Below the pieces are notes generated by a model. That model saw only the letters and a list, made by a program, of their open reading frames with translations. It ran no database searches and was not told where the DNA came from. Below, piece by piece: positions 40,768-42,696 of a stretch of DNA of 64,000 bases. A program made the position numbers and the translations under genes. The stretch's first letter is position 1. Each line of letters starts with the position of its first letter. The DNA is from an uncultured Alphaproteobacteria bacterium (GTDB taxonomy: Bacteria > Pseudomonadota > Alphaproteobacteria > Paracaedibacterales > CAITNM01), in contig CAIQTY010000051.1 of assembly GCA_903874955.1 (NCBI GenBank), forward strand, positions 2,686 through 66,685. The letters run 5' to 3'.

Positions 40768-42696
40768 ATGGTCGAAAGTATTCAGCATAAGCTCGACCGG
40801 GTGCGCCCACCACGTGTCCAAATTACATATGATGTAGAGATAGGTGATGCTATTGAAATGCGTGAATTACCATTTGTTGTTGGAATTCTTGCTGATTTAT
40901 CTGGACATATAGCTGATCCTCTTGCTCCGTTAAGGCAAAGAAAATTTATTGATCTTGATAAAGATAATTTCCAAGATGTTCTTGAATCAATTCGTCCACG
41001 TTTGACTATTACAGTTCCTTATAAATTGAGTGCCGATAAAACAGAGACTTCTTTAGAGCTTTTCTTTAGTTCTATGGATGATTTTGAGCCGCTTAACATC
41101 GTTAAAAGAATAGATGATTTGAGTAAATTATATGATTCTCGCTGTCACTTGAAAGATTTGATGAGCAAGCTTGATGGTAACGATACCCTTGCTAGCATGC
41201 TGACCGATGTGATGGCTGATGCAGCAAAGCAAAAACCCTTAGCTGATCAAATAGCGGCTGGTTCTGGTGATGATCTCGATAAAATTTTAACTGAAGGAAA
41301 AATGGCCCGTGATGAATCGCAAAAGCTAATTGCCATTAGTATATTAAATGAATTTTTAATTCAAATAGCTGTTCCAGATGAAAACGATCCCAAAATTTTA
41401 GGGCATTACTTAGCTTACCATATTGATAGGATAGAAAGCCTTATTAGTACACAAGTTAATTTGATAATGCACCACCCTGATTTTTTGAAATTAGAAGGGT
41501 CATGGAGAGGTTTGTTCTACCTGGTTAGTAGAGCGAGTACAGGTGAATCTCTAAAGTTAAAGCTATTAAATTTAACCAGGCAAGAATTGCAGAACGACTT
41601 AGATAGAGCAGTTGAATTTGATCAAAGCCAGTTGTTTAAAAAGGTTTACGAAGAAGAGTATGGCACTTTTGGTGGACATCCTTATTCCTGTTTGGTAGGA
41701 GACTTTGAATTTGGTCGCTCACCTATGGACATGGACTTGCTTGAGAAAATTTCAGGCGTTGCAGCCGCAGCTCATGCACCTTTTATAAGTGCAGCTCATC
41801 CACTGCTGTTTGATCTAGATAGTTTTGAACACCTAGGCGTGCCAAGAGATTTAGGCAAGGCAATGGAAAGTCTTGAACTTGTGAAATGGCATAGTTTCAG
41901 AAGTTCTCCAGATTCTCGTTATGTAAGTTTGGTATTGCCAAGAGTTTTGATGCGTCTACCGTATGGTCCAGATACATCTCCTGTGGAAGGATTGAACTTT
42001 AAAGAAGATGTAGGTTTAGCTGATAGCAATCTCTTTTGCTGGGGTAATGCGTCGTACGTTCTTGCAGAGCGCATATGTAATGCATTTAGTCTGTACAAGT
42101 GGACAGCAGCAATTCGTGGGGTTGAAGGCGGTGGTATTGTTGAAGGATTGCCACCTTATACATTTAAAACTCCAGACGGAGACATAGCTCTTAAATGTCC
42201 AACCGAAGTTAGTATTACAGATCGCCGCGAGAAAGAATTAAGCGATAATGGGTTCATTTCCCTATGTCACTGCAAGGGGACTGATTATGCTGCTTTCTTT
42301 GGAGGACAAACGTCACAAAAACCAAAGAAGTATAATCTTGATGATGCTACGGCAAACGCGAATCTTTCCGCTCGGCTTCCCTATATATTAGCTGCTTCAC
42401 GTTTTGCACATTATATCAAAGTTATAATGCGAGATAAAATTGGCAGCTTCATGACCAAAGATAATGTTTCGTTTTATCTTAACACTTGGATTGCACAATA
42501 CGTACTGTTGAATGATGGTGCTCCTCAAGAAATTAAAGCAAAATATCCTCTTCGCGAAGCTAGGATCGATGTTTTTGAAGTTCCAGGGCAACCAGGATCA
42601 TATACCTCAGTTGCTTATATAAAACCACACTTCCAGTTGGAAGATTTAGCGGTTTCTATTCGTTTAGTCGCAAAATTACCAGCACCATCCGCGTAA
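40768..42696 (+). CDS. tssBC: T6SS contractile sheath protein, an in-frame TssB(VipA)-TssC(VipB) fusion
   Basis: aa 1-~150 are TssB-like (RVQITYDVEIGDAIEMRELPFVVGILADLSG, DKDNFQDVLESIRP, FSSMDDFEPLNIV). aa ~170-642 are TssC-like (IMHHPDFLKLEGSWRGLFYLV, FDQSQLFKKVYEEEYGTFGGHPYS, AAAHAPFISAA, WHSFRSSPDSRYVSLVLPRVLMRLPYG, SRFAHYIKVIMRDKIGS). A GAGGA RBS precedes the ATG. Confidence 0.85.
   Translation: MVESIQHKLDRVRPPRVQITYDVEIGDAIEMRELPFVVGILADLSGHIADPLAPLRQRKFIDLDKDNFQDVLESIRPRLTITVPYKLSADKTETSLELFFSSMDDFEPLNIVKRIDDLSKLYDSRCHLKDLMSKLDGNDTLASMLTDVMADAAKQKPLADQIAAGSGDDLDKILTEGKMARDESQKLIAISILNEFLIQIAVPDENDPKILGHYLAYHIDRIESLISTQVNLIMHHPDFLKLEGSWRGLFYLVSRASTGESLKLKLLNLTRQELQNDLDRAVEFDQSQLFKKVYEEEYGTFGGHPYSCLVGDFEFGRSPMDMDLLEKISGVAAAAHAPFISAAHPLLFDLDSFEHLGVPRDLGKAMESLELVKWHSFRSSPDSRYVSLVLPRVLMRLPYGPDTSPVEGLNFKEDVGLADSNLFCWGNASYVLAERICNAFSLYKWTAAIRGVEGGGIVEGLPPYTFKTPDGDIALKCPTEVSITDRREKELSDNGFISLCHCKGTDYAAFFGGQTSQKPKKYNLDDATANANLSARLPYILAASRFAHYIKVIMRDKIGSFMTKDNVSFYLNTWIAQYVLLNDGAPQEIKAKYPLREARIDVFEVPGQPGSYTSVAYIKPHFQLEDLAVSIRLVAKLPAPSA

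Follow-up and report, generated by a model that had tools for sequence, protein, structure and literature searches.

Within the 64-kb stretch of DNA analysed here (the window), we identified a gene, denoted tssBC, in which the two subunits making up the contractile sheath of type VI secretion systems (T6SSs), TssB (VipA) and TssC (VipB), are joined in one open reading frame (ORF). The ORF starts with ATG, contains no internal stop codon and encodes 642 amino acids. On the protein, the Pfam family T6SS_VipA (PF05591) matched residues 10-162 (E 2e-47, 161 bits versus a cut-off of 24), followed by VipB (PF05943) at residues 218-517 (E 4e-123, 411 bits) and VipB_2 (PF18945) at residues 527-637 (E 6e-44, 149 bits). 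The NCBIfam model of TssB, TIGR03358, covered residues 6-162 (model positions 1-157 of 160, E 5e-46, 156.4 bits versus a cut-off of 97.25), and that of TssC, TIGR03355, covered residues 168-638 (model positions 3-473 of 473, E 2e-191, 637 bits versus a cut-off of 271.5). The protein therefore belongs to both families, with full-length profile matches above the curated cut-offs. Since VipA, VipB and VipB_2 were the only Pfam families matched, it does not belong to the phage-type single-chain sheaths (gp18 or T6SS-iv). An earlier examination of the letters alone, referred to as the sequence-only reading, had proposed a single in-frame 642-residue TssB-TssC chain whose N-terminal 150 residues are TssB-like. 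The two non-overlapping profile matches are what it had predicted, Pfam and NCBIfam both identify the N-terminal part as TssB, and the peptide strings that it quoted from the ORF are all present in the translation.

To describe the junction, we compared the profile boundaries with a predicted structure. Only about five residues (AAGSG, 163-167) fall between the TssB and TssC profiles, so that there is essentially no linker. An Ala/Asp/Lys-rich linker had been proposed at nucleotides 41218-41300 (residues 151-178), but most of this segment belongs to two helices, the last of TssB and the first of TssC. The linkers of fused relatives range from 0 to ~120 amino acids and are rich in Ala/Gly/Thr/Pro. 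By group, the window and its closest relatives have no linker, and others have either a 'QQITDHKNAE...' type of junction or an Ala/Gly/Thr/Pro-rich segment of up to ~120 residues. An AlphaFold2 (AF2) model of the tssBC monomer was built on 60 relatives (mean predicted local distance difference test score (pLDDT) 70, predicted template modelling score (pTM) 0.66). In this model the junction region, residues 140-200, is predicted to be helical with confidence (pLDDT ~88-92), and AAGSG forms a short loop between helices 152-164 and 168-175 (pLDDT ~88-90). Residues 1-32 and 623-642 have low pLDDT, which is what strands pairing with adjacent protomers would be expected to show.

In a PDB sequence search, residues 1-153 matched the small-subunit chains 9n4v_B (E 4e-50), 4uqz_B and 5n8n_A, and residues 170-642 matched large-subunit chains, the best being 9n4v_A from A. 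vinelandii (E 2e-198). The identity of the TssC module reached 62% to 9n4v_A and 48% to 5n8n_B. A Foldseek search with the AF2 model recovered the TssC and TssB chains of every solved sheath, with E-values for TssC down to 3e-31, and the best match to a non-T6SS fold, a region of the phage 812 sheath, was insignificant (E 0.4). All PDB sheaths matched by the tssBC protein are two-chain. The sequence-only reading had stated that TssB and TssC are separate genes in the T6SS classes known to it; the fusion proved to be widespread and occurs in cultured bacteria.

The identical 642-residue protein, in the same gene order, is present in four independent metagenome assemblies. Database relatives share the fusion: the best 120 (90%-identity clusters, 53-100% identity) all have VipA, VipB and VipB_2 within a protein of 640-762 residues, and those at 75-88% identity are all fused, with lengths of 642-648 residues. 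When tssBC was aligned with the relative L018, to which it is 85% identical, substitutions were present at the junction and there were no indels. For the TssB core dN/dS was ~0.06 and for the junction ~0.09; these values, rough because dS is near saturation, indicate that the junction of tssBC is under purifying selection. Across 60 fused proteins, ~180 columns are invariant. Four features of split relatives are missing from the window gene: the tail of TssB, the stop codon, a spacer of 15-60 nt with a ribosome-binding site (RBS) and a TssC start of the 'MAE...' type. As the tail, the RBS and the 'MAE...' start are all gone, the difference is far beyond the loss of one stop codon. Taken together, the fusion is real, conserved and under purifying selection.

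How far the fusion extends was examined on DNA in 80 species-level genome loci returned for the tssBC protein. TssB and TssC lie in one frame with no stop in 18 of the 80, and other look-ups bring the number of distinct fused loci to 22. Among the 18 are loci from Holosporaceae, Holosporales and Caedibacter metagenome-assembled genomes (MAGs), SAR324, Woeseiaceae, Kangiella, Arenicella, Algicola, Thalassomonas sp. RHCl1 and Aliagarivorans marinus DSM 23064. Through a TssK search we reached two cultured carriers, Thalassomonas actiniarum (CP059735.1, a complete chromosome) and Vibrio gazogenes, whose uninterrupted ORFs encode 646 and 645 residues, respectively. The fusion family, as single DNA-verified frames in several lineages, thereby comprises the 22 loci and these two isolate loci. 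By the TssK search only, the same TssK type was seen in T. viridans, Marinomonas spp., Thalassotalea insulae, Oceanobacter, Bacterioplanes and Ca. Endobugula sertula. In a TssC-only search of 50%-identity cluster representatives, TssB and TssC were on one protein in 96 of the best 150, a count that is not a frequency, because representatives may favour long sequences and entries of 800-2151 residues may be read-through gene calls. About 20 cluster representatives in this size range have extra N-terminal sequence before TssB-TssC (P0159, P0220, P0223, P0231, P0239-P0245, P0271, P0284), and in P0231 (1644 residues) WD40 beta-propeller matches precede the sheath domains; these could be true triple fusions or read-through gene calls. 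Another member of a fused cluster, P0129 (409 residues; cluster of P0012), is filed under the proteome of the chrysophyte Dinobryon pediforme (EukProt), which fits a bacterial endosymbiont or a contaminant.

A bootstrap neighbour-joining (NJ) tree was built from concatenated TssB and TssC of 67 taxa (621 columns, 200 replicates, simple distance). On it, the window falls among MAGs of Holosporales and Paracaedibacteraceae. A clade of the fused loci plus a set of nested split loci (L001, L002, L004, L014, L042, L077, L080) appeared in 85% of replicates. The group of Gammaproteobacteria and SAR324 was recovered in 100% of replicates, and the window and L018 grouped with split Paracaedibacteraceae-like loci in 68%. 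By Fitch parsimony, 198 of the 200 replicates needed three or more changes between the fused and split states, four being the most frequent number. Based on these trees and on the different junctions of the groups, fusion, fission or both have been recurrent, with at least three changes that may have gone in either direction.

The census of clpV covered the 64-kb window and 10 kb on either side of the genes in relatives. No match was obtained by tblastn with Burkholderia ClpV across the window, confirming the sequence-only reading on this point. Absence from the window alone means little, as this lineage has its T6SS genes dispersed over the genome. Among relatives, ClpV was encoded within 10 kb in 46 of 62 split loci versus none of 26 fused loci. 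The gene order of the split relatives is tssB-tssC-hcp-tssE-tssF-tssG-clpV, and in the fused loci of Gammaproteobacteria and SAR324, tssG is followed by vgrG or by tssK-tssL, with no clpV. In T. actiniarum and V. gazogenes the cluster consists of a sigma54 activator, orf79, tssBC, hcp, tssE, tssF, tssG, an ORF, tssK, tssL, tssM and tssA; these complete clusters, which have unrelated genes on both sides, contain no clpV. No tssH is listed for the complete genome of Ca. Bodocaedibacter (PMC8163844). The cluster-encoded clpV/tssH of canonical systems is absent from the fused loci, and the fused sheath belongs to a T6SS clade without a cluster clpV that is closest to the split type ending in clpV. 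As for other genes of these clusters, the gammaproteobacterial fused type has a conserved ORF of 79 residues just upstream of tssBC (L088 3133-3372; L089 3354-3593). The ORF of 159-183 residues between tssG and tssK (L088 9453-10004; L089 9525-10004) has no family match and may be a TssJ-like lipoprotein. The clusters of T. actiniarum and V. gazogenes contain no vgrG, and the Woeseiaceae, SAR324 and Kangiella loci have vgrG followed by large pentapeptide-repeat proteins.

ClpV is known to dock on the TssC helix that bears LLDEI(I/M), at VipB residues 19-24 (PMC4239648, PMC5048182, PMC5924787), and the canonical form of the motif is LLDxI(I/V) (PMC5924787, PMC4239648). We scored the motif at the homologous position as [LVIM][LIVM][DE]x[IVL][IVLM]. 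It was present in all 46 split loci with ClpV nearby and in all eight other split loci, in weakened forms in six of the eight nested split loci, and in none of the 22 fused loci; among fused database proteins it was found in one of 60. Other fused groups carry EILKEMF, ELITRML, DVPSLV and so on at this position. This association is claimed for DNA-verified loci only, because a few long 'fused' gene calls keep LLDxI-like strings. A regex-anchored form of the motif test on 150 TssC-only representatives was discarded, as 88 had no anchor and the segments were misaligned. The ClpV-docking motif has thus decayed in the fused loci, and since LLDxII has decayed across the family, the first TssC helix is probably no longer a ClpV handle.

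This bears on two points of the sequence-only reading. It had suggested that the fusion makes the ClpV handle internal; however, the canonical handle already lies 15-30 residues in from the N-terminus of TssC (PMC5924787, PMC5048182), and with the motif decayed there is probably no handle to internalise. It had also pointed out that the window contains no clpV gene. No clpV was found near fused loci, and split members of the clade are without clpV as well, so that the loss of cluster-encoded clpV is shared by the whole clade and cannot be put down to fusion alone. Independence from ClpV therefore looks like a trait of the clade that made fusion possible, and not like something that fusion brought about.

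Compared with known sheaths, both modules of tssBC match the canonical T6SS-i sheath (V. cholerae VipA/VipB; P. aeruginosa TssB1/TssC1; A. vinelandii 9n4v) over their full length, and the order tssB-tssC-hcp-tssE recurs in the H1-T6SS/Burkholderia-type clusters that the split relatives have. Unlike canonical T6SS-i, the window sheath is one polypeptide with a decayed docking motif, and fused-type clusters have no clpV after tssG. The sheaths of phages, pyocins and T6SS-iv (gp18-like) also consist of one polypeptide per protomer and have no dedicated ClpV. In contrast with these, the window protein is a concatenation of TssB and TssC and has no phage-sheath Pfam match. As its nearest relatives are split, it is best seen as the product of a re-joining that took place secondarily in T6SS-i, not as an ancestral single-chain sheath that was kept. 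The comparison with single-chain sheaths draws in part on PMC5924787.

In Francisella, IglA/IglB have no cluster ClpV and no LLDEIM-type handle on the large subunit, and ClpB disassembles the sheath (PMC5924787). The fused-sheath systems resemble this T6SS-ii in having neither a cluster ClpV nor a handle, and the Holosporales-like carriers share the intracellular lifestyle. In contrast with the window, IglA and IglB are encoded by separate genes and are distant in sequence (3j9o_B, E 2e-62; 3j9o_A, E 1e-5). By analogy with Francisella, ClpB may have a role in fused-sheath systems. Closer at hand, T6SS genes of Holosporales are scattered in conserved mini-loci, including [tssB-tssC-hcp] (PMC8163844; review PMC11909080), and those of Ca. 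Bodocaedibacter vickermanii are [tssB-tssC-hcp], [tssG-tssF], [tssK-L-M-A] and [ywqK-vgrG] (PMC8163844). This scattered four-locus layout is the conserved norm in Holosporales, kept even in the smallest genomes, and it is transcribed in Ca. Bodocaedibacter (PMC8163844, PMC11909080). Like these Holosporales/Paracaedibacteraceae systems, the window has a tssB/C-hcp mini-locus amid housekeeping genes, and the window lineage adds tssE and orf118 to it. Whereas in Ca. Bodocaedibacter and UBA6184 tssB (513 nt) and tssC (1455 nt) are distinct genes, parted by a stop, an RBS and an ATG, the window gene is fused.

The mini-operon has the order tssBC-hcp-tssE-orf118 (Table 1), and its tube (Hcp) and baseplate (TssE) genes, adjoining tssBC, are the context expected of a sheath gene. 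The spacer between tssBC and hcp is 12 nt long and carries an AAGGAG motif, so that the two genes are close in translational terms. The 190-residue hcp ORF alone had no Pfam or NCBIfam match. When a profile of syntenic ORFs was built without the window hcp, it scored 58.9 bits against the window ORF, with an hhalign probability of 97.9%; the family profile matches a solved Hcp, 9qpe_A (E 1e-26), and PF05638 is matched by 11 of its 24 members. The product of orf118 likewise had no Pfam or NCBIfam match. Both L018 (48% identity) and every window-type assembly have orf118 in this place, and its product may be a lineage-specific T6SS accessory protein. A sigma-70 promoter scan of the 200-nt AT-rich upstream spacer and of 40400-45300 gave fewer matches than shuffled sequence and is therefore uninformative. 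In the 64-kb window, no ClpV/ClpB-like gene and no tssF, tssG, tssK, tssL, tssM, tssA or vgrG was found; tssF, G, K, L, M, A and vgrG occur in the clusters of fused relatives.

Table 1. Features of the fused sheath gene and its mini-operon, in window positions.
Feature	Position	Strand	Description and basis
Shine-Dalgarno-like GAGGAA	40756..40761	+	6 nt 5' of the tssBC start; read off the sequence
Fused tssB-tssC gene (tssBC)	40768..42696	+	642 amino acids plus stop; uninterrupted ORF, Pfam/NCBIfam profiles, AF2 model
TssB (VipA) module, residues 1-162	40768..41253	+	TIGR03358, PF05591, PDB small-subunit matches
Junction, residues 163-167 (AAGSG)	41254..41268	+	Sole residues outside both profiles
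TssC (VipB) module, residues 168-642	41269..42693	+	TIGR03355, PF05943, PF18945, PDB 9n4v_A
Degenerate ClpV-docking counterpart DLDKIL, residues 169-174	41272..41289	+	Alignment of TssC N-terminal helices
hcp/tssD, divergent, 190 amino acids	42709..43281	+	Profile of syntenic ORFs, hhalign, solved Hcp match
tssE, gp25-like baseplate subunit, 177 amino acids	43344..43877	+	TIGR03357, E 3e-21 (above cut-off); PF04965
orf118, small conserved ORF, last in the mini-operon	43890..44246	+	Synteny conservation
Weak terminator-like hairpin	44286-44302		3' of orf118

The genes around the operon include GcrA, phasin, BolA and an Elm1-like protein, which together with a GC content of 37% point to an alphaproteobacterium, and the host looks like an AT-rich, Holosporales-like member of that class. 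More distant fused relatives have the same kind of mini-locus amid housekeeping genes. A foreign origin of the operon was considered, but its GC content (38-39.5% versus 37.3% for the window) gives no sign of recent transfer. Elsewhere in the window, a gene for a 742-residue protein (35718-37946, + strand) lies 2.8 kb upstream of the sheath operon, and the only recognisable domain of its product is a C-terminal YoeB-like toxin domain (661-739). In other assemblies of the same organism this gene occurs in other lengths or pieces (383+261, 397+139, 532 and 623 residues), and the protein is a possible polymorphic toxin or candidate T6SS effector. A divergent pair of NB-ARC (STAND) genes, at 25717-29088 (-) and 29561-33019 (+), encodes proteins of more than 1100 residues each, one with an N-terminal TIR domain and the other with a LuxR/GerE helix-turn-helix and TPR, which resemble defence or signalling proteins. 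Two large subtilases (Peptidase_S8) of 992 and 817 residues, at 14799-17777 (-) and 33050-35503 (-), have long regions that match no family.

We propose that the product of tssBC is probably a natural single-chain protomer of the T6SS sheath, with TssB and TssC head to tail, in a Holosporales-like host. As in the VipA/VipB sheath, the C-terminal helices of TssB and the helix at the TssC N-terminus would sit together in the surface-exposed outer domain. The inter-protomer 'handshake' strands would be the N-terminus of TssB and the C-terminus of TssC. As these lie at the outer ends of the fusion, the TssB-TssC join, with its 0-120 linker residues, would leave both termini needed for assembly free, and any linker would be placed on the sheath surface. 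The fused sheath would then polymerise on Hcp and contract as usual. Once extraction of TssC by ClpV was no longer used, there would be no selection against tethering TssC to TssB, and the fusion could have been fixed, apparently repeatedly, through the loss of the stop codon or a short deletion between the two genes, which are often in one frame. Recycling of the contracted sheath would presumably fall to a general unfoldase, for instance ClpB as in Francisella, or the sheath would simply be turned over. The sheath architecture on which this mechanism builds is partly as summarised in PMC5924787.

Several explanations compete with a single-chain protomer. At one extreme, an assembly or sequencing artefact might have removed the tssB stop from what are really two ordinary genes: the window is a metagenome-type assembly, and in many split relatives one stop is all that separates tssB from an in-frame tssC, so that one error could mimic a fusion. 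This is hardly credible now. Four independently assembled samples yield the identical protein, the relatives at 75-88% identity are all fused at 642-648 residues, and the junction differs from that of L018 by substitutions and not by indels (omega ~0.09). The missing TssB tail, RBS and 'MAE...' start amount to far more than a single-base change. With more than 100 fused relatives in addition, the assembly indel against which the sequence-only reading had cautioned is excluded as the cause. It is also very improbable that tssBC is a decaying, non-functional relic of a T6SS being lost from a reduced symbiont genome. Such a relic would explain why the window holds only tssBC, hcp and tssE, with no other core genes found in its 64 kb, and the Holosporales T6SS has been called 'non-standard' (PMC11909080). 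However, the ~180 invariant columns in 60 fused proteins and an omega far below 1 do not fit decay, the scattered layout is the Holosporales norm, transcribed in Ca. Bodocaedibacter and kept in the smallest genomes (PMC8163844, PMC11909080), and free-living cultured Gammaproteobacteria have complete fused-type clusters.

A more serious alternative is that the one ORF gives rise to two proteins, through cleavage at the junction or an internal TssC start, and that the mature sheath is the usual heterodimer. In many family members proteases would have access to long linkers of low-complexity Ala/Gly/Thr/Pro sequence, Met179 of the window protein is preceded by GAAGGA, and the NCBI pipeline called a 495-residue 'large subunit' inside a 643-residue fused ORF. 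In the window protein, though, the junction is a five-residue loop between confidently predicted helices and offers no linker to cut. An internal start was judged unlikely, since position 179 is Leu in most relatives and a start at this position would delete the conserved first helix, and the other internal ATG/GTG codons are not accompanied by a Shine-Dalgarno-like motif. Furthermore, hundreds of diverged sequences, whose linkers differ greatly, keep the frame open, and this implies that read-through translation is selected for. We therefore regard a two-protein outcome as unlikely, albeit the least remote of the three.

A natural single-chain protomer remains our preferred explanation, and the following points weigh against it. 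The single-chain state is read from gene sequences, so that cleavage or an internal TssC start could occur, and the GAAGGA before Met179 is Shine-Dalgarno-like, although most relatives have Leu there. That the window organism has a functional T6SS is suggested by its relatives and the literature, the window itself being without tssF, G, K, L, M, A and vgrG. The absence of clpV applies to the 64-kb window and to 10 kb on either side in relatives, not to whole genomes. The window DLDKIL keeps four of the five canonical motif positions. Loss of clpV, loss of the motif and fusion are phylogenetically confounded, so that the counts are not independent and causality is our interpretation. Lastly, as the NJ trees used a simple distance, the number and direction of the fusion events are approximate.

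To our knowledge, structural and genetic studies of the sheath have so far dealt with TssB/TssC heterodimers only, and pulling on TssC by ClpV is the textbook step of sheath recycling. In the literature searched, outside of which most subscription journals lay, we found no description of a natural TssB-TssC/VipA-VipB fusion or of a link to clpV loss; the fusions of these proteins that were found are experimental tag fusions, and Boyer 2009 does not mention a natural one. The fusion is not unique to the window but appears undescribed as a class. Database labels of the fused proteins read 'contractile sheath large subunit' or 'ImpC' only, and the NCBI entries MCE2716721.1 and MFN6415415.1 (cluster of P0005) are 495-residue 'large subunits' where JGI calls the full 643-residue fused ORF. 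As annotation labels the fused protein as the large subunit or starts it internally, the genomes appear to be without tssB.

A natural single-chain sheath offers a ready way to ask if having two separate genes makes a difference to assembly, contraction and disassembly, and, as the product of one gene, it is a simpler building block for structural studies or engineering. The fusion also marks a ClpV-less T6SS clade, including the system thought to be central to the symbiosis of Holosporales with protists. As the fused architecture occurs in the cultured, non-pathogenic marine bacteria T. actiniarum and V. gazogenes, these questions are directly testable there. More tentatively, and as a possibility that we would not yet favour, fused-sheath T6SSs may be a distinct, ClpV-independent mode that arose several times by joining of tssB and tssC after clpV loss, is shared by Holosporales endosymbionts of protists and marine Gammaproteobacteria such as Vibrio gazogenes, and in which the covalent tether, 0-120 residues on the sheath surface, alters the way in which the contracted sheath is recycled, or whether it is recycled at all (by ClpB, by proteolysis or as a single-shot device). 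If this is true, the ClpV-independent mode would be genetically testable in V. gazogenes.

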